A DNA stretch of 64,000 nucleotides from Escherichia coli (GTDB lineage Bacteria; Pseudomonadota; Gammaproteobacteria; Enterobacterales; Enterobacteriaceae): NCBI RefSeq assembly GCF_024298765.1, contig NZ_CP101210.1. One strand, written 5' to 3'. How positions within the stretch are numbered: position 1 is the first letter of the stretch; every line of letters starts with the position of its first letter. This document shows, piece after piece, positions 41,543-49,957 of the stretch. The notes below the pieces were generated by a model that worked only from the letters and a program-made list of their open reading frames with translations, ran no database searches and was not told the origin of the DNA. A program made the position numbers and the translations under genes.

Positions 41543-42796
41543 ATGTCAGGATCCAACACTGCAATCAGCCGTCGTCGTTTACTGCAAGGCGCGGGTGCCA
41601 TGTGGCTATTGAGCGTAAGTCAGGTCAGCCTGGCTGCGGTCAGCCAGGTCGTGGCGGTGCGCGTCTGGCCTGCGTCCAGCTACACCCGCGTGACGGTAGA
41701 ATCAAATCGTCAGCTGAAATATAAGCAGTTCGCGTTGAGTAACCCGGAACGCGTGGTGGTGGATATCGAAGATGTAAACCTGAACTCGGTACTCAAGGGG
41801 ATGGCGGCACAAATTCGTGCAGACGACCCGTTCATCAAGTCGGCGCGCGTCGGGCAATTTGACCCGCAAACCGTACGCATGGTTTTTGAATTAAAGCAAA
41901 ACGTAAAACCGCAGCTGTTTGCCCTTGCGCCGGTCGCCGGGTTTAAAGAGCGTCTGGTGATGGACCTCTATCCGGCCAATGCACAGGATATGCAGGACCC
42001 GCTGCTGGCGCTGCTGGAGGATTACAACAAAGGCGACCTCGAAAAGCAGGTGCCGCCAGCGCAAAGTGGTCCACAACCAGGTAAAGCAGGGCGCGATCGT
42101 CCGATTGTCATTATGCTTGACCCTGGCCACGGTGGCGAAGACTCCGGTGCGGTGGGGAAATACAAAACGCGCGAAAAAGACGTGGTATTGCAAATAGCTC
42201 GCCGTCTGCGCTCTCTGATCGAGAAAGAGGGCAATATGAAGGTGTACATGACGCGCAATGAAGACATCTTCATTCCGTTGCAAGTGCGCGTAGCAAAAGC
42301 CCAGAAACAGCGTGCCGACCTGTTTGTCTCTATCCATGCCGACGCCTTTACCAGTCGTCAGCCGAGCGGTTCCTCTGTGTTTGCGCTCTCAACCAAAGGT
42401 GCAACCAGTACTGCGGCAAAATATCTGGCACAAACCCAGAACGCCTCGGACTTGATTGGTGGCGTGAGCAAAAGCGGTGACCGCTATGTCGACCACACCA
42501 TGTTCGATATGGTGCAGTCGCTGACCATTGCCGACAGCCTGAAGTTTGGTAAAGCGGTGCTGAATAAGCTCGGTAAAATCAACAAGCTGCATAAAAATCA
42601 GGTTGAACAAGCCGGGTTTGCCGTGCTGAAAGCGCCTGATATACCCTCCATTTTGGTCGAAACGGCGTTTATCAGTAACGTTGAGGAAGAACGTAAACTG
42701 AAAACGGCAACCTTCCAGCAGGAAGTTGCGGAATCAATCCTCGCAGGGATAAAGGCGTATTTTGCCGATGGGGCGACGCTGGCGAGAAGGGGATAA
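41543..42796 (+). CDS. amiC: N-acetylmuramoyl-L-alanine amidase, Tat-exported (start at internal ATG 41543)
   Basis: 417-aa product [20 protein letters not shown]... with twin-arginine signal, AMIN and Amidase_3 regions. Confidence 0.9.
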
Positions 42797-42969
42797 TGTT
42801 TTTATTTATTCAATGAATTTATATTTCGTTGAATAGATAATATTTACCTGAATATTAGACGTTGGTTTTGTGACTGATGTCGAATATTTGAATGTCGGCT
42901 TGAAAAATAAGCCGACCATCTCTTTAATTAAGCACAATTCCGTGTAATGTATATGCATTAGTTAATCAT

Positions 42970-43042
42970 CTTGTAACTGTTAAATCAGGCAAGGCAATGT
43001 TTGAAGTAGTTATTACTTCTGACGTGCCTTGCCTTTTTTTTT
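42970..43042 (+). promoter_or_regulatory. RAT-like element overlapping a leader terminator (BglG/LicT-type antitermination attenuator)
   Basis: CTGTTAAATCAGGCAAGGCAATG resembles the RAT motif; GGCAAGGCA (42988-42996) pairs with TGCCTTGCC (43025-43033), followed by nine T residues (43034-43042). Confidence 0.6.
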
Positions 43043-43053
43043 GGAGCTATGGA

Positions 43054-43878
43054 ATGATCATCGAAAAAGTCATGAACAATAATTGTGTACAGGCATCGAT
43101 GAATGGACAGGAGGTTATCATTTCTGGGCCTGGCGTCGGTTACAACAAAAAATATGGAATGTCGGTCCCTGAGCATCCGGCTAACCGGATTTTTTATGTC
43201 AGAAATGAACAAAAAAATAAACTCTACAAATTGATTGAGCATGTGGATATCGAGTATGTTTTTGTTGCCGAAAAAATAGTGCAATATGCGGAGAACAATC
43301 TCGAAAAAAATCTCAATCCATCGCTACTATTGATTCTTGCTGATCATATTTCGAATGCAATATCCCGAGTCGCTTCAGGCATACAAATTAATAATGTTTT
43401 CCTTGATGAAATCAAAGCGTTGTACAAAGCAGAGTATGCGATAAGTCGCGATGCATTAACTATCATTAATGAGCAATTCAGCGTTCAACTTCCTGATGAT
43501 GAGATTGGTTTTATAGCATTGCATATCTTAAATAATTATGAAAATTCAGTTGATTATGAATCAGTACGGATTATTGAGTTGTCGCAAATAATCACGGGGC
43601 TTATTGAAGTTGTTTATAACAGAAAGGTGGACAGAAGTTCATTTAATTATTCCAGGTTCATGATACACCTTAAATATTTTTCAAGTCGCGTATTATGCAA
43701 TGAAAAAATAAAACAGAAAGATATTGGTGATCTCTATGAACAGTTTCTTGAGAAAGACATTCTGTTACAGCGCGCAATTCATGAAATTGAAAGGTATTTG
43801 TACGCCACTTTTAAATATGAATTGATTTTGGAAGAAAAACTATATCTCTCTATTCGCACCAAAGTATTAATGGACTAA
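43054..43878 (+). CDS. BglG/LicT/SacY-family transcriptional antiterminator (CAT RNA-binding domain plus PRD domains); real start is the internal ATG at 43054
   Basis: MIIEKVMNNNCVQASMNGQEVIISGPGVGYNKK matches the CAT domain N-terminus; GGAG 7 nt upstream of the ATG; the track's upstream start lies inside the terminator hairpin. Confidence 0.8.
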   Translation: MIIEKVMNNNCVQASMNGQEVIISGPGVGYNKKYGMSVPEHPANRIFYVRNEQKNKLYKLIEHVDIEYVFVAEKIVQYAENNLEKNLNPSLLLILADHISNAISRVASGIQINNVFLDEIKALYKAEYAISRDALTIINEQFSVQLPDDEIGFIALHILNNYENSVDYESVRIIELSQIITGLIEVVYNRKVDRSSFNYSRFMIHLKYFSSRVLCNEKIKQKDIGDLYEQFLEKDILLQRAIHEIERYLYATFKYELILEEKLYLSIRTKVLMD

Positions 43879-43909
43879 TTATATATAACATTTATATGAG
43901 ATAACCCGC

Positions 43910-45490
43910 ATGAAACAAAAGAAAGCCTGGAGTTTTTTTCAGAGCCTGGGAAAGGCATTTATGTATCCCATCGCTCTGCTAAGTGTATGTGGCATGATGT
44001 TAGGGCTAGGAAGTGGTTTAGCCAGCGATGATATGGCAAAATTAATTCCACTACTGGCTATTCCCGTAATTAAAACCATTCTTGATTTTATTGTTAGCCT
44101 TGGTTTGTTTGCCTTTGTCAATTTACCTGTATTGTTTGCGATAGCTATACCTCTGGGGTTATTAAAAGAGAAAGAGGATAAAGCCTATGGCGCTTTTTCT
44201 GGCTTAATTGGTTTCATGGCGATGCATCTGGGAACGAACTTTTATCTTAAACAACATGACTTATTGGTCGCTGCTGATCAAATGTCGACACATGGGCAAA
44301 CCATTATTCTGGGAATCCAGTCCTACAATACCAGTGTGTTGGGTGGGATTATAGCAGGATTATTAGTCGCCAGTATGTATAAAAAGATCGTTAACTTACG
44401 TATTCCTGAATCATTAGGATTTTATAGTGGTCCACGCCTGGTGCCTATTATTACACTGATTGTGATGAGTGGATTTGGTCTGATCATCCCTTTTATCTGG
44501 CCGCCATTTTTCAATCTTTTCATGCTCATTGGCCACTGGATTTCAACTTCCGGTCCTGTTGGCTATTTTTTCTATGCAGTCGCCGAACGCGTGACGATAC
44601 CTTTTGGTTTAAATCACCTGGTGACGTCAGTTTTCCGCTTTACCCCCATCGGCGGATCGGCAGTGATCGGCGGCGAAGAGTATTATGGCACCCTGAACAT
44701 GTTTATGGCGTACGTCAAAGAGAATGCGGTCATTCCGCTGGATTTGGCGGGGAAAATGGAACAGGGCAAACTGATGATTCAGTATGGTCTGGCTGGTGCC
44801 GCGCTGGCGATGTATCGCACTGCTCATGCTCAAAACAGAAAAGCTATCAAAGCATTGCTTATTTCCGGGGTGCTTACAGTCATTATTGGCGGCGTCAGCG
44901 AACCGATTGAGTTTCTGTTCTTATTTGTCAGTCCACTGCTATTTGTCTTCCATGCTTTTATGAATGGCTTCGCCAACATGGTCTTGCCATATATGGGCGT
45001 GAAGATGGGATTTACTGGCGATCTGATTCAATTTATTAGCTTTGGCGTATTGCGTGGCACAAGAACAGGTTGGCCAATAGCGATGTGTGTCGAAGTGGCC
45101 TATTTCTTTATTTATTACTTTGTGTTCCGTTGGACTATTCTCAAATTTAACCTGATGACGGTAGGCCGTGAAGAGTCCAGTCCTGTCACGCTGAACGCTC
45201 ATGAGGATACGGCTATAGCGGATATCCCAACGCTTGATAAATCAGAGCTGCAAGCAGCGGAGCAGATGGTTAAGGCACTTGGTGGTAAAGAGAATATTAA
45301 ATCCCTGGATAATTGCGTAACTCGTTTACGTTTAACAATCGCAGATATGGGATTGATTGACGAGGCAGCAATAAAAAGAGCTGGCGGAATTGCGGTTGTT
45401 AAACTTGATCAAAATACCCTACAAGTCATTATCGGTACTAAAGTCATCGCCTTGCGTCGGGATATGGATAACTACATGGGGATATGCTGA
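43910..45490 (+). CDS. PTS EIICB component of the glucose/maltose/N-acetylglucosamine family
   Basis: 526-aa ORF, polytopic EIIC body followed by an EIIB domain carrying the phospho-cysteine motif (NCVTRLRL). Confidence 0.85.
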   Translation: MKQKKAWSFFQSLGKAFMYPIALLSVCGMMLGLGSGLASDDMAKLIPLLAIPVIKTILDFIVSLGLFAFVNLPVLFAIAIPLGLLKEKEDKAYGAFSGLIGFMAMHLGTNFYLKQHDLLVAADQMSTHGQTIILGIQSYNTSVLGGIIAGLLVASMYKKIVNLRIPESLGFYSGPRLVPIITLIVMSGFGLIIPFIWPPFFNLFMLIGHWISTSGPVGYFFYAVAERVTIPFGLNHLVTSVFRFTPIGGSAVIGGEEYYGTLNMFMAYVKENAVIPLDLAGKMEQGKLMIQYGLAGAALAMYRTAHAQNRKAIKALLISGVLTVIIGGVSEPIEFLFLFVSPLLFVFHAFMNGFANMVLPYMGVKMGFTGDLIQFISFGVLRGTRTGWPIAMCVEVAYFFIYYFVFRWTILKFNLMTVGREESSPVTLNAHEDTAIADIPTLDKSELQAAEQMVKALGGKENIKSLDNCVTRLRLTIADMGLIDEAAIKRAGGIAVVKLDQNTLQVIIGTKVIALRRDMDNYMGIC

Positions 45491-46665
45491 TGGATGTTTT
45501 TAATACTCCTATTTCCCGCAAAGGAACATATTGTACCCAATGGGACTTTTGCGAGGACAGATTTGGTGTAAAAGATGTATTACCATTCTCTATTTCAGAT
45601 ATGGATCTTCCGATACCGGAAGCTATCATCAGGGCATTAAGAAAACGTCTGGAACACCCGATTTTAGGGTACAGCCGTTGGCAGCATGATGACTATCTGA
45701 ATGCGATAGTCAATTGGTATCATCAACAATATAAAACTGAAATCAAACCAGAATGGATAACCTATAGCCCAAGCGTGATGTACTCCATTGCTAAAGCAAT
45801 AGAGTTATTGACATCGCATGGTGATAATATTCTCGTTTTTACACCTGTCTATAATGCATTTTTTGATATAATTAAACATAGTGAGAGAAATATTCTGACA
45901 GCCTCTTTGATTATAAAAAATGAGGGGGGCTACGCTATCAATTGGCAAGATTTTGATCTTAAGATTCAAAGCGCAAAGATGGTGTTATTATGTAATCCTC
46001 ATAACCCGACAGGAACCGTCTGGTCGGAAGAAGATCTGCATAAAATCGCTGCAAGCTGTGCAAGACATAATGTCTGGTTATGTTCAGATGAAATTCACAG
46101 TGATTTTGTTTTTAATCGTAGCTTTACATCTGCGCTTAAAATAAAAAAAGAAAAAGTAGTGGTGTTTAATTCGATATCGAAGACATTTAATGTTCCTGCG
46201 CTAACAGGATCGTATATGATTTCAACTGACGATAATTTTAATCATAAGTTCAGAACGATATCAAGATATCGCGATTTTGTAAACTCCCCATCCGTACTGA
46301 ATATAATTGCAACTATTATTGCCTATAACGAATGTGAGGGATGGTTAAAGTCATTAAAGGCACATATTGCCTCTAACATTCAATTCACCCAGCAGTATCT
46401 GAACGAAAATACTCCAGAATTGATCGTAAGGCCAGCTGATGGTTGCTATTTTTCGTGGATAGATTGCTCTGCTATTGGTTATTCCTTTGATGAATTCTAC
46501 AGTCGATTAATTCATGAAGGCAAAGTGGGCATTATGGCGGGGAATGTCTATGGAACGGAGGGGGAGGGCTACCTTCGTCTGAACCTGGCCTGCGGTCGAG
46601 AAAAATTATATATGGGGCTTACGCGTCTTGCGAGTGTAATTAAAAATATTAATCAAGGAAAATAA
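45484..46665 (+). CDS. PLP-dependent C-S lyase / aminotransferase of the MalY/PatB type
   Basis: 393-aa ORF with class-I aminotransferase PLP-lysine motif (FNSISKTFN); overlaps the PTS gene stop by 7 nt. Confidence 0.75.
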   Translation: MLMDVFNTPISRKGTYCTQWDFCEDRFGVKDVLPFSISDMDLPIPEAIIRALRKRLEHPILGYSRWQHDDYLNAIVNWYHQQYKTEIKPEWITYSPSVMYSIAKAIELLTSHGDNILVFTPVYNAFFDIIKHSERNILTASLIIKNEGGYAINWQDFDLKIQSAKMVLLCNPHNPTGTVWSEEDLHKIAASCARHNVWLCSDEIHSDFVFNRSFTSALKIKKEKVVVFNSISKTFNVPALTGSYMISTDDNFNHKFRTISRYRDFVNSPSVLNIIATIIAYNECEGWLKSLKAHIASNIQFTQQYLNENTPELIVRPADGCYFSWIDCSAIGYSFDEFYSRLIHEGKVGIMAGNVYGTEGEGYLRLNLACGREKLYMGLTRLASVIKNINQGK

Positions 46666-46667
46666 AA

Positions 46668-47264
46668 ATGAACAGTACGGATCTTATCCATCTCATTAAA
46701 CATTTTATGCGTAACGAACATAAAGCAGTTGAAGAAGTTATTGATTCCCCCCTTTCGGAGGTCGCAAATTTAATTAAAGTATTACAGTCTTGTCAGGGGA
46801 AAGTTGTTTTTATTGGTGTCGGTAAGTCCGGTATTATTGCCCGAAAACTCGCCGCAACATTTGCCAGCACTGGAACTCCCTCGTTTTTTGTTCACGGTAC
46901 TGAAGCCGTACACGGCGATCTTGGGATGGTGGCGAAAGATGATGTTGTTATTCTTATTTCAAACAGTGGTGAGACGACAGAAATCCTGGCAACACTACCT
47001 AGTCTGAAAAAAATGGGTAATTATTTGATCTCCTTTACCCGCAGTCATCGCTCATCGCTTGCGATAAGTTGTGATTTATCCGTTGAAATTCCCGTAAAAA
47101 GTGAGGCGGATAATTTAGGTTTAGCGCCGTCATGCTCATCAACAGTCGTTCTGGTTGTTGGTGATGCGGTGGCGCTTGCGCTCTCCGAATTGAAAAAGTT
47201 TACTCGTGCTGATTTCGGCTTATATCATCCAGGAGGTGCGCTCGGTATTAAAGCAAACTCATAA
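46668..47264 (+). CDS. SIS-domain sugar-phosphate isomerase (KdsD/GutQ-like SIS module without CBS domains)
   Basis: 198-aa ORF; GVGKSGIIARKLAATFASTGTPSFFVHGTEAVHGDLGMV and YHPGGALG resemble arabinose-5-phosphate isomerase SIS motifs. Confidence 0.7.
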   Translation: MNSTDLIHLIKHFMRNEHKAVEEVIDSPLSEVANLIKVLQSCQGKVVFIGVGKSGIIARKLAATFASTGTPSFFVHGTEAVHGDLGMVAKDDVVILISNSGETTEILATLPSLKKMGNYLISFTRSHRSSLAISCDLSVEIPVKSEADNLGLAPSCSSTVVLVVGDAVALALSELKKFTRADFGLYHPGGALGIKANS

Positions 47265-47325
47265 TTTTAGAATATAAAACAGTAACCGGTCACGCCATCT
47301 TTTGGGGTGGCGTTCATTGATGTGA

Positions 47326-48282
47326 GTGTCAGCTATGAAAAACGTTCTGGTCACCGTTCCCAGCTTTTCAGCGCGTTGTGTTTCTGCCAGCAAGCTGCTA
47401 AGAGAAAATCATTTTAACCTTATTATCAAGAATAATGTGGAGCATCTGGTTAAATCAGAATCCACAGTATTACGAGAATCTATTTGCGCAGTCATTGCCG
47501 GAAAAGATTGTTATCAAGCGGATACGTTATCGCGACTACCAGGAGTGAAAATAATATCGAGATTCGGGACAGGGATTGATAATATTGATCTTCATACGGC
47601 TCGACAATCAGGTATTGTGGTCAATAATGCTGTTGGGATTAATTCAAATGCAGTCGCGGAATTTATCATCGGTCTTATTTTTGCGAGCATGAGAAATATC
47701 CCCGGTAGCTATCATGCAATGCAAAATGGTTATTGGGGCGAGTCGCATGGCTGCGAGTTACAAGGTAAACGTATTGGCCTGCTTGGCTACGGCAATATTG
47801 GCAAAACACTGGCGAAAAGGTTATCTGGTTTTGATGTTGAGCTTTTAGCTTTTGACAAACAACCCGATTTCCAGGCCGCAGGCAAAGATGGAGTTCAGTT
47901 CGTATCAATTGAAGATATCTTTATGCAGTCTCATGTCATCATCGTTCTTTTGCCATTTTCTCCGGAGCTGGAGAACTTCATTAGTCATAAATATTTGTCG
48001 ATGATGCGCAATGGTGCTCTTATCATCAACGCCGCAAGGGGAAAGTTGCTGGATGAGGGTGCTTTACTTCAGGTAATTGAAGAACGAAATGTTTTTGCAG
48101 CGCTGGATGTGTTTAGCTCTGAACCGCTAGCGCAATTTAGCCCATTGCTACATGCCAGGAATATCATTACAACGCCGCATATTGCGGCCGCCACCGTTGA
48201 GTCATACCAGCAAACCGGGATATACGTTGCCAGGTCGATAATAGATTTCTTTGCAGGAAGGGAGATAAAAAACGTGCTGTGA
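47326..48282 (+). CDS. NAD-dependent D-isomer-specific 2-hydroxyacid dehydrogenase
   Basis: 318-aa ORF; dinucleotide fold GLLGYGNIGKTLAKRL, catalytic region (INAARG ... TPHIAAAT). Confidence 0.8.
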   Translation: MSAMKNVLVTVPSFSARCVSASKLLRENHFNLIIKNNVEHLVKSESTVLRESICAVIAGKDCYQADTLSRLPGVKIISRFGTGIDNIDLHTARQSGIVVNNAVGINSNAVAEFIIGLIFASMRNIPGSYHAMQNGYWGESHGCELQGKRIGLLGYGNIGKTLAKRLSGFDVELLAFDKQPDFQAAGKDGVQFVSIEDIFMQSHVIIVLLPFSPELENFISHKYLSMMRNGALIINAARGKLLDEGALLQVIEERNVFAALDVFSSEPLAQFSPLLHARNIITTPHIAAATVESYQQTGIYVARSIIDFFAGREIKNVL

Positions 48283-48313
48283 GTTCAGCTAAGGAAGATT
48301 TCAGGTACAAAAA

Positions 48314-48342
48314 AACCGCAATTTGTGAAACACATTGCGGTT
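48314..48342. terminator. Hairpin between convergent dehydrogenase gene and T6SS genes, possibly bidirectional
   Basis: AACCGCAAT-loop-ATTGCGGTT inverted repeat, A-run on the 5' side and short T-run on the 3' side. Confidence 0.5.
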
Positions 48343-48580
48343 TATCAGCATCATAGGTGTTGGTTGCGGGGGCCACAGTCAAGAGGTTAATCCAACCTTT
48401 TGAAACTTAAGACATTCACTGTTCCCGAACCCAAGCTATCTACCGAAATATACACTCATTATCTGATGTGAATCAACGAGTAGATCGAATGGCCTGTTCC
48501 TCTCTTTTTTGTACACAGAGACTCCTTTTAAAAAATGGCAAGGGCACATATCCCTTATTGGTACATAAATCCCCCGATGT

Positions 48581-49957
48581 TTACTGACTTTGTTCCACCT
48601 TCGTATCCAGTAAAATGACATAGCGATTCAACAACTGATTTAACCGGGTATCAATTTGCGTCAACAGCGTTGGCGAAACCTCTCCGGTCTGTTTTTGCTC
48701 TTCCAGTTGCCGAAGCAGTTCTTCCAGCGGCGGCTCCTTTAACGACTGCCGGATGCCGTACACCGCCGTTTTCAGTTCCGAACCGGTCAGATATCTCCCC
48801 TTACGTTCATCCAGTGCATCCAGCTGCGCCGACAGGCGCTGTAGCTGACTCTGCGCCTGAGCATAGCCATTCAGTGCCTCAGCAGACAGGGCGCTCAGCT
48901 CCCGCTGTTTGCGCCACTGCGCGTTCAGCGCCCTGACCTGAGGATTATCCGGCCACAGGGCATCAAGCTGGCGTAGCTGGCGATATCCCTGCTCCAGTGG
49001 CCAGCGGGCAGGCAATTTGTTTAACTGCTCCAGTTGCATCTGACTTGCCGCAATTGTTCTGTCCTGAGCCAGCAGCGCCTTATCCTTTACATCCAGCTTT
49101 GCCAGTTCGCCGCTCTCCAGCGACTGCGGCAACGGCATGACAGACAGTTGTATTCGCTGGATTAGCGCGTCCGGCTGATTAAGCTGCGACCAGCCCCATA
49201 ATCCTGTTCCGCCGAGACCGGCCATCACAACCATTCCGGCCATAAATATCGGCCATGTCCACTGCCGGGAGATTTCAGGGGATGGCACGGGTGGACTGGC
49301 ATCCTTATCGTTTTGCTGAACGGATCTGGTTGCAAAAACCGGCTGTGGACTTTCCTCTGACTTTTTCGGTTGATTCATTTCCCGGCGGGGTAATTCAGGG
49401 GGAGTGATAATGGTTTCCGCTCCCTGAGGCGCCAGCCGTTCCAGACGCAGAGCCGCATTGCGAAACTGCCCGGACAATACGTCCAGCTTCGTCATATGCC
49501 ACAGTTCACACTGTTGCAGCGTGGTTTCGATGGCGGAAAGATGCTGTACACAACGGTAGATCTGCGGCAGATCCTGATACTGAATATCCAGCGTTCTCAG
49601 TGCCTGCTGCATTTTTTCTGTGACCCAGTTGAGCAGTGATATTCTGGAATGTACCTGTACCGGCCAGAAGTCAGCCCAGCGCTGGAGCAGTATATCCAGT
49701 GAACCGAGTCCGTCTGCCATCCCTGCCAGCCCCTGCCGTCTGGTTATCGCCAGTACGTAACAGACCAGCGTCTGTAGTTCCACGCCATTTTGCCGGAACA
49801 GCGCGAGGCTGAGTTTTTCCACCTGACGCCAGTCCACATCCGGTCGGGCCGGGTGAGTCAGTTTACTCATTTCAGCCTGCAGTTCACCGGATTCCTTATA
49901 AGTACAAGGATCGCCGCCCATGACGAACTGGCTGATAAAATTCGCGTTACTTGCCAT
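48581..49957 (-). CDS. T6SS-associated ImpA_N-domain protein with central transmembrane segment (VasL/TagA-like)
   Basis: 458-aa ORF; N-terminal region similar in pattern to the ImpA_N domain of the tssA product; hydrophobic segment (WPIFMAGMVVMAGLGGTGLWGW); last gene of the T6SS block. Confidence 0.55.
   Translation of the reverse strand: MASNANFISQFVMGGDPCTYKESGELQAEMSKLTHPARPDVDWRQVEKLSLALFRQNGVELQTLVCYVLAITRRQGLAGMADGLGSLDILLQRWADFWPVQVHSRISLLNWVTEKMQQALRTLDIQYQDLPQIYRCVQHLSAIETTLQQCELWHMTKLDVLSGQFRNAALRLERLAPQGAETIITPPELPRREMNQPKKSEESPQPVFATRSVQQNDKDASPPVPSPEISRQWTWPIFMAGMVVMAGLGGTGLWGWSQLNQPDALIQRIQLSVMPLPQSLESGELAKLDVKDKALLAQDRTIAASQMQLEQLNKLPARWPLEQGYRQLRQLDALWPDNPQVRALNAQWRKQRELSALSAEALNGYAQAQSQLQRLSAQLDALDERKGRYLTGSELKTAVYGIRQSLKEPPLEELLRQLEEQKQTGEVSPTLLTQIDTRLNQLLNRYVILLDTKVEQSQ

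Follow-up and report, generated by a model that had tools for sequence, protein, structure and literature searches.

A putative RAT/terminator attenuator in the leader of the pafR-pafP operon of Escherichia coli

Introduction

The DNA studied here is a stretch of 64,000 nucleotides of E. coli (assembly GCF_024298765.1, contig NZ_CP101210.1), referred to below as the window. Within it, a RAT-like sequence and a hairpin followed by a run of T residues are crowded into the short region in front of an antiterminator gene. This arrangement raises the question of whether the two elements constitute a switch by which the gene regulates read-through into itself and the genes behind it, and, as one possible start codon lies inside the hairpin, where the gene begins. 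We find that the region 42969-43042 is best explained as an attenuator in the leader of pafR-pafP, very probably acting by autoregulated antitermination. As such, the element is a canonical bgl/lic-type RAT/terminator attenuator of an already named regulator and presents no new mechanism.

The genes behind the leader are those of the paf cluster

The earlier note on this DNA, made from its letters, had placed an antiterminator gene and a PTS operon downstream of the hairpin, and both were found. A gene with CAT, PRD1 and PRD2 domains is followed, after a gap of 32 nt without a second terminator, by a gene for an EIICB permease (Table 1). In RefSeq their products are named 'PRD domain-containing protein' and 'PTS transporter subunit EIIC'. 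Translated, the second gene shows the EIIB motif NCVTRLRL; its product, PafP, would by analogy need a separate EIIA, for example Crr. The bgl/sac/lic-type sugar switch suggested by the earlier note thus holds for the layout of the locus; the permease, on the other hand, is of the MalX/glucose family and not of the beta-glucoside type. The terminator scan of the + strand from 43878 to 48282 revealed no other convincing terminator.

Table 1. Features of the paf leader and operon (positions within the window).
Feature	Position	Strand	Basis
Candidate -10 element TAATGT of the paf promoter	42945-42950	+	inferred; TAnnGT invariant in 10 orthologous leaders
RAT hairpin, U CUUG UAA CUG UUAAAU CAG G CAAG G	42969-42994	+	pattern scan, folding, orthologous leaders
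Terminator hairpin: 10-bp GC-rich base, 4-bp middle helix, 6-bp inner helix, 5-nt loop	42987-43034	+	folding, covariation
In-frame upstream ATG, longest-ORF start, inside the hairpin, probably unused	42997-42999	+	not conserved; not used by PGAP
U9 tract of the intrinsic terminator	43034-43042	+	read from the sequence; 7-10 T in the examined E. coli alleles and other genera
Shine-Dalgarno sequence GGAG	43043-43046	+	7 nt before ATG 43054; invariant in all leaders
pafR, BglG/SacY/LicT-family antiterminator (CAT, PRD1, PRD2), 274 aa	43054-43878	+	profile, PDB and Pfam matches
pafP, PTS EIICB permease, MalX/glucose family, no EIIA domain	43910-45490	+	TIGR02004 PTS-IIBC-malX, 536.8 bits, below cut-off
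MalY/PatB-family C-S lyase gene, overlapping the pafP stop codon	45490-46665	+	TIGR04350, 367.6 bits (cut-off 340)
SIS-domain sugar-phosphate isomerase gene, KpsF/GutQ-like N-terminal half	46668-47264	+	profile matches, annotation
D-2-hydroxyacid/phosphoglycerate dehydrogenase-like gene, last of the cluster	47335-48282	+	profile matches, annotation
Hairpin ACCGCAAU/AUUGCGGU between the operon end and the convergent T6SS gene	48315-48341	.	U7 tail on the - strand, UUUAU on the + strand

The whole 5.5-kb cluster occurs in 1688 of 5426 complete E. coli genomes (about a third), adjoining argA-amiC and the T6SS cluster. Its G+C content is 40.7%, that of the leader 31.5% and that of the window 50.8%. 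The same order of genes (amiC, PRD protein, PTS, MalY, SIS, dehydrogenase, T6SS) is found in strain CFT073, whose PRD protein is 98% identical to the one encoded in the window and whose leader matches exactly across RAT and terminator. The location of pafR in the metV island is given in PMC8882828, which cites Baum et al. 2014, and PMC9981650 cites the same paper for PafR and pafP; genes c3405-c3410 of PAI-CFT073-metV make up a maltose/glucose PTS set (PMC2831201). From the match to the CFT073 locus and the published position of PafR in the metV island it follows that the gene after the attenuator is pafR. The gene pair is thus already published as pafR/pafP, and the PafR/PafP system of uropathogenic CFT073 (Baum et al. 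2014, Infect Immun 82:4241) is encoded by the same locus as that of the window. According to Baum et al. 2014, cited in PMC8882828, uropathogenic E. coli requires both genes to be fully virulent in mice.

PafR belongs to the BglG/SacY/LicT family

PafR aligns end to end with the models of LicT, GlcT and BglG and with PDB chains 1TLV, 6TWR, 1H99, 3RIO and 1L1C, the structural matches being to LicT (CAT domain and PRDs) and GlcT, and Pfam domains PF03123 and PF00874 are recorded for the representative of its cluster, which is 93% identical. The scores against the NCBIfam models all remain below the respective cut-offs: 227.7 bits for LicT (cut-off 300), 178.6 for GlcT (320) and 104.5 for BglG (322). 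Judged by its sequence, PafR is therefore a member of the family and not an ortholog of any named LicT, GlcT or BglG. LicT is its best family match, and its nearest non-orthologs are clostridial LicT proteins with 33-37% identity. The residues of the CAT signature, K5, N8-N10, G25 and G27, are conserved, and so are His98, His157 and His205, with H100, H159, H207 and H269 of LicT as the reference. The fourth PRD histidine (H269 in LicT) is replaced by Arg throughout the PafR clade and by Asn in BglG. Since PafR falls below the LicT, GlcT and BglG cut-offs and is devoid of the fourth histidine, its control may not copy that of LicT.

The leader carries a RAT and an intrinsic terminator that exclude each other

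RATs are characterized by a core sequence, UUGUUACUG-loop-CAGGCAA, that sits in an imperfect palindrome some 29 nt long, and by a fold in which a 3-bp stem at the top is followed by an asymmetric internal loop, a middle stem and, at the base, a G-C clamp. The leader holds a core of the form UUGUAACUG-N6-CAGGCAAG within 42969-42994; with UUAAAU as the loop, it corresponds at 42971-42993 to the core sequence of a RAT. The pattern TTGTNACTG-N4-9-CAGGCA matched only once in the 64-kb window, at 42971-42991, with 0.01 matches expected by chance. Compared with known RATs, the element is identical to bgl RAT1 at 16 and to bgl RAT2 at 14 of the 23 non-loop positions (both read from K-12), and to Firmicute RATs at 17-19 of them. 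Since none of the Rfam models matched in a scan of 42000-49000 at E values up to 10, Rfam could not classify the element.

The alternative stem-loop can indeed form: the segment 42970-42993 alone is predicted to fold at -6.3 kcal/mol into a hairpin with a CUG/CAG upper stem, an AA internal loop and a lower stem of 5-6 bp. Its base consists of C-G plus U-G/U-A, the GG/CC clamp of the bgl and Firmicute RATs being absent, thus recognition of this RAT could differ.

The 9-bp stem and the nine Ts described in the earlier note can be read directly from the sequence, with the 5' arm GGCAAGGCA at 42988-42996 and the 3' arm TGCCTTGCC at 43025-43033, immediately before the T tract. Six pairs of this 9-bp core are G-C, and a hairpin of this kind with a U9 tract behind it is an intrinsic (Rho-independent) terminator. 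The complete hairpin is longer than was first described, as the pair A42987-U43034 extends the base and an inner helix GAAGUA/UACUUC is added, giving a 20-bp interrupted hairpin overall. On its own it folds at -27.4 to -27.9 kcal/mol. The 106-nt region folds at -33.7 kcal/mol (z = -4.0), and none of 200 shuffled sequences was as stable. Among the 27 T-runs of at least 7 nt on both strands of the whole window, this one is preceded by the most stable hairpin. An automated terminator scan did not report the site because it allowed loops of 3-8 nt only; the region was folded directly instead.

The overlap of the two elements, also proposed earlier, was confirmed, the RAT sharing 6-8 nt with the 5' arm of the terminator hairpin. 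Because nucleotides 42987/8-42994 are common to both, the RAT and the terminator exclude each other, and of the two the terminator is by far the more stable (-27.9 vs. -6.3 kcal/mol for the isolated hairpins). In the putative leader, 42957-43042, the minimum-energy fold is the terminator, while enforcing the RAT gives a less stable fold of -15.8 kcal/mol with a residual hairpin at 42997-43025 and 8 unpaired nt before the U tract. The default state is thus predicted to be 'terminate'. With the RAT enforced no stem adjoins the U tract, so that a factor stabilizing the RAT would remove the terminator. RNA transcribed only as far as 43020 is predicted to fold into the RAT. Such logic is that of the classical bgl/sac/lic mechanism, summarized in PMC12591593.

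The RAT and the terminator are conserved with pafR

We compared seven E. coli leader sequences (91-100% identity) and added those of E. whittamii, two Citrobacter species, Atlantibacter hermannii and three metagenome contigs, whose PafR proteins are 77-93% identical to that of the window. The RAT is invariant in nine of ten orthologous leaders and differs by one nucleotide in Atlantibacter, while its flanks diverge by 8-25% and the sequence farther upstream varies freely. Being invariant, the RAT provides no covariation in support of its own fold. The terminator is retained in all ten leaders, at -24.7 to -28.0 kcal/mol and with 7-10 U residues. In the alignment, 92% of the cells of the terminator are paired, as compared with 31-54% when the partners are slid. 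Three of its pairs have changed on both sides, among them G42994:C43027, which has become A:U in four sequences, and in Atlantibacter the inner stem is rebuilt as one continuous helix. A further locus, L014 (protein P0021, 56% identity), was considered as an intermediate homolog and discarded, as it proved to be a noisy assembly of the E. coli locus.

One could argue that the attenuator is real but is operated by another antiterminator, e.g., BglG, or is a fossil, the targets of PafR lying elsewhere. The identity of its core to bgl RAT1 at 16 of 23 positions makes cross-talk conceivable. In the 2014 work of Baum and co-workers, PafR reportedly can antiterminate, no direct RNA targets or inducing signal were reportedly assigned to it, and the paf promoter was reportedly silent in vitro. 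A search of UPEC genomes for RATs was reported by Gordon and co-workers in 2015. Operation by another antiterminator is nevertheless disfavored because the RAT and pafR have been inherited together, across four genera and with the RAT under strong purifying selection. In 5426 complete E. coli genomes no second near-identical paf-type RAT was found; the search returned a single site in each island-bearing genome and none in the others. Moreover, cis-linked cognate pairs are the rule in the BglG/SacY/LicT family (PMC9981650, PMC12591593). We therefore regard the attenuator as belonging to PafR, and its operation by some other regulator as a long shot.

It may also be asked whether the hairpin and the U9 tract simply terminate transcription of amiC or insulate the border of the island, the RAT-like sequence being there by coincidence. 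The hairpin is located 190-240 nt downstream of the amiC stop codon on the same strand, and it would stop read-through from amiC regardless of any other role; a nearer hairpin, at 42894-42916, is followed by a poor run of T residues. However, in Citrobacter, Atlantibacter and the metagenome contigs the RAT/terminator stands before the antiterminator gene just the same, although the gene upstream encodes an LTXXQ protein or a CN-hydrolase and is not amiC. In an island-less E. coli strain, homology ends at approximately 42912. As the upstream gene differs and homology is lost at that point, the element belongs to the paf module or island and not to amiC. A chance RAT is further contradicted by the 0.01 matches expected and by the invariance of the motif between diverging flanks, which makes coincidence very improbable.

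The same comparisons narrow down the position of the promoter. Homology with the leaders of other genera starts near 42917, and that with the island-less strain stops near 42912, therefore some 50 nt are left in which a promoter could sit. A consensus scan upstream of the RAT detected no strong sigma-70 promoter there. The candidate -10 element (Table 1) may be accompanied by a weak -35 sequence, TTTAAT, at 42923-42928 (three of six consensus positions), and transcription likely starts near A42957, within the invariant CAT at 42956-42958.

pafR starts at ATG 43054

The ATG at 43054-43056, which opens the sequence MIIEKV, follows the T-run after 11 nt; the distance of 12 bp given for it in the earlier note is the same within counting convention. 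The longest reading frame begins at the ATG at 42997, directly 3' of the 5' arm of the terminator, and this start had been assumed to be unused. Our results agree with that assumption. Since the codon at 42997 is ACG or AGG in five of the ten orthologous leaders, 43054 is the real start, and it is the one used by RefSeq/PGAP. GGAG and ATG 43054 are invariant across the compared leaders. The resulting N-terminus, MIIEKVMNNN, aligns with MKIAKVINNN of LicT, and the start also aligns with the N-terminus of BglG. The 274-aa form is annotated on at least 1000 contigs vs. 77 for the 293-aa form.

That the gene might nonetheless begin at 42997, the hairpin being a coding or translational element, is scarcely credible: this ATG is in frame, the 293-aa form is annotated in some GenBank records and the minimum-energy fold of the window pairs 42965-42969 with the start codon at 43054, but that long-range pairing is not kept in other orthologs, no Shine-Dalgarno sequence precedes 42997 as it does 43054, and the extra 19 residues match nothing. 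A translational lock, in which 42965-42975 forms a helix with the start-codon region 43048-43058, as in the minimum-energy fold of the window, was also rejected; the helix is absent from the minimum-energy folds of most orthologs, and C42967 changes without compensation.

Proposed operation of the switch

Taking the attenuator as the leader element of pafR-pafP, we propose the following sequence of events, in which the binding of PafR to the RAT, the control by PafP and the nature of the inducer are modeled on related systems. Transcription would start near 42957 from a weak, island-borne promoter, and the nascent RNA would first form the RAT hairpin. Unaided, this hairpin would be displaced by the far more stable terminator, and RNA polymerase would then halt in the U9 tract, 11 nt upstream of the pafR start codon. 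By analogy to BglG and LicT, PafR would be active when PafP is busy with its sugar and PRD1 is no longer phosphorylated. A CAT-domain dimer of active PafR would then bind the RAT and withhold nucleotides 42987-42994, so that the base of the terminator could not form and the polymerase would go on to transcribe pafR, pafP and the three metabolic genes. The layout points to autoregulation: because pafR sits behind its own terminator, the circuit would be one of positive feedback, presumably primed by leaky read-through.

If such an attenuator is at work, it explains why reporters that contain the leader would look silent. One may go further and suppose that the leader RAT is the direct target of PafR, and in E. 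coli the only near-identical one, that the reported silence in vitro stems largely from the terminator of -28 kcal/mol and not from a dead promoter, and that the reported effects of PafR on virulence and biofilm genes are indirect, through MalX/MalY-like metabolism. We offer this extension tentatively, as a possibility that we consider rather unlikely to hold in full. Were it true, a reporter with the terminator deleted would make the sugar that induces the system in vivo screenable. Independently of that, the conserved RAT/terminator provides a concrete cis-target for tests of PafR, and the start codon is settled, while mis-annotations as a 293-aa protein persist in databases. In practical terms, a sensory system linked to virulence gains a defined cis-target and a corrected start codon.

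Comparison with known RAT systems

A close parallel within the species is the bgl operon of E. coli, where a RAT likewise overlaps an intrinsic terminator ahead of the antiterminator gene and the regulator is thus placed behind its own terminator. Both RATs have the core UUGU(U/A)ACUG-N6-CAGGCAA in common, and BglG, like PafR, has three of the PRD histidines and is devoid of the fourth. The two systems differ in that the gap between bglG and bglF holds another RAT/terminator, whereas that between pafR and pafP holds none, and in the base of the RAT, where bgl has GG/CC and paf has C-G plus U-G. Furthermore, BglF is a beta-glucoside EIIBCA, in contrast to PafP, an EIICB of the MalX/glucose family without EIIA.

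A metagenome scan for the paf RAT core yielded 20 contigs, some of which are paf loci. The remaining contigs are low in G+C and carry GGAUUGUUACUGUUAAAUCAGGCAAGACC with the same apical loop and an overlapping terminator. In these loci (contigs L020-L037), which we take to be clostridial licT-bglP loci of the kind known from LicT of B. subtilis, the core and the loop UUAAAU are identical to those of paf. In the two contigs whose reading frames were checked, L032 and L033, the RAT separates an ORF of antiterminator size from the long ORF that comes next; in L032 these are licT (329.6 bits, cut-off 300), whose product is 32% identical to PafR, and a beta-glucoside EIIABC gene. There the RAT comes after licT and controls only the permease, while the paf RAT precedes the antiterminator gene itself; the permease is a beta-glucoside EIIABC, and LicT possesses all four PRD histidines.

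In its architecture the paf leader also resembles that of nagY-nagE of Enterococcus faecalis, an autoregulated and virulence-linked antiterminator-PTS operon with a single RAT overlapping a terminator in its 5' UTR (PMC9981650). The nagY-nagE RAT bears little resemblance to the bgl/sac consensus (PMC9981650), unlike the paf RAT, which comes close to that consensus; the nagY-nagE operon encodes an N-acetylglucosamine EIICBA as its permease, and NagY has a second target, hylA.

Start codon of the antiterminator gene

In public records, a 293-aa long form of the antiterminator (42997-43878), labelled 'antitermination protein', is found on 77 contigs, while the 274-aa form of PafR is found on at least 1000 contigs. 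The 293-aa annotation is a persistent start-codon mis-annotation. The start region also holds a mini-ORF, AUG-GAA-UGA, whose stop codon overlaps the pafR start codon; in other species it reads AUG-AAA-UGA, the AUG being invariant. As this AUG lies only 2 nt 3' of the GGAG, the mini-ORF is probably not translated.

Boundaries and gene content of the paf cluster

The features discussed in this part are collected in the table below. At the upstream end, homology with the island-less strain HS-02 ends at approximately 42912 and homology with other genera begins at approximately 42917, and the junction of core genome and island is spanned by a hairpin; where the island is present, this hairpin may act to terminate amiC transcription. 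A candidate CRP-like half-palindrome was noted within the core genome next to this junction, about 80 nt 5' of the paf start site, which we place tentatively near A42957. At the downstream end lies a second hairpin; it is followed by T7 if read on the - strand but by no more than TTTAT if read on the + strand.

Coordinates of features in and around the paf cluster and elsewhere in the window
Feature	Position	Remark
Candidate CRP-like half-palindrome, TGTGA-N6-TCGAA	42869-42884	core-genome side of junction
Hairpin GTCGGCTT-GAAAAAT-AAGCCGAC	42894-42917	spans core genome/island junction
Mini-ORF	43049-43057	
Hairpin ACCGCAAT/ATTGCGGT	48315-48341	between convergent ends of paf cluster and T6SS VasL gene
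Two terminators (+)	14064; 14267	CCUGCGC(A/G)GAUGCGCAGG, then 8-9 T
tRNA-Gly(CCC) gene	2909-2982	sole tRNA gene within window

The gene set at 43910-48282 is unusual, as it combines a MalX-like EIICB, a MalY/PatB C-S lyase, a CBS-less SIS domain and a PGDH-like dehydrogenase, and an antiterminator is in charge of the cluster instead of a MalI-type repressor. Elsewhere in the window, two strong and near-identical terminators stand about 200 nt apart; the metV tRNA, from which the island takes its name, lies outside the window.

Variation and possible origin of the cluster

In some strains the paf cluster is split by insertion of the IS4-like element ISVsa5, and one copy of the cluster is plasmid-borne; the genome matches concerned are H1 and H2 (strains VTB97379v and APEC O2-211). 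A RAT core and apical loop the same as those of paf, overlapping a terminator, were found in Firmicute-like metagenome contigs (L020-L037). In one of them, L032 (1847-4690), licT and a beta-glucoside EIIABC gene flank the RAT, and a 6-phospho-beta-glucosidase gene is located upstream. The paf cluster is also low in G+C, and these features taken together give a hint of an origin outside Enterobacteriaceae.

PRD histidines of PafR

Residue 268 of PafR, which is encoded at 43054-43878, stands at the fourth PRD histidine position and is Arg in all PafR orthologs; the three remaining PRD histidines are kept. HPr-dependent control of PafR may accordingly differ from that of LicT. The equivalent position, H269 in LicT, is occupied by Asn in E. 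coli BglG, whereas PafR orthologs carry Arg there.
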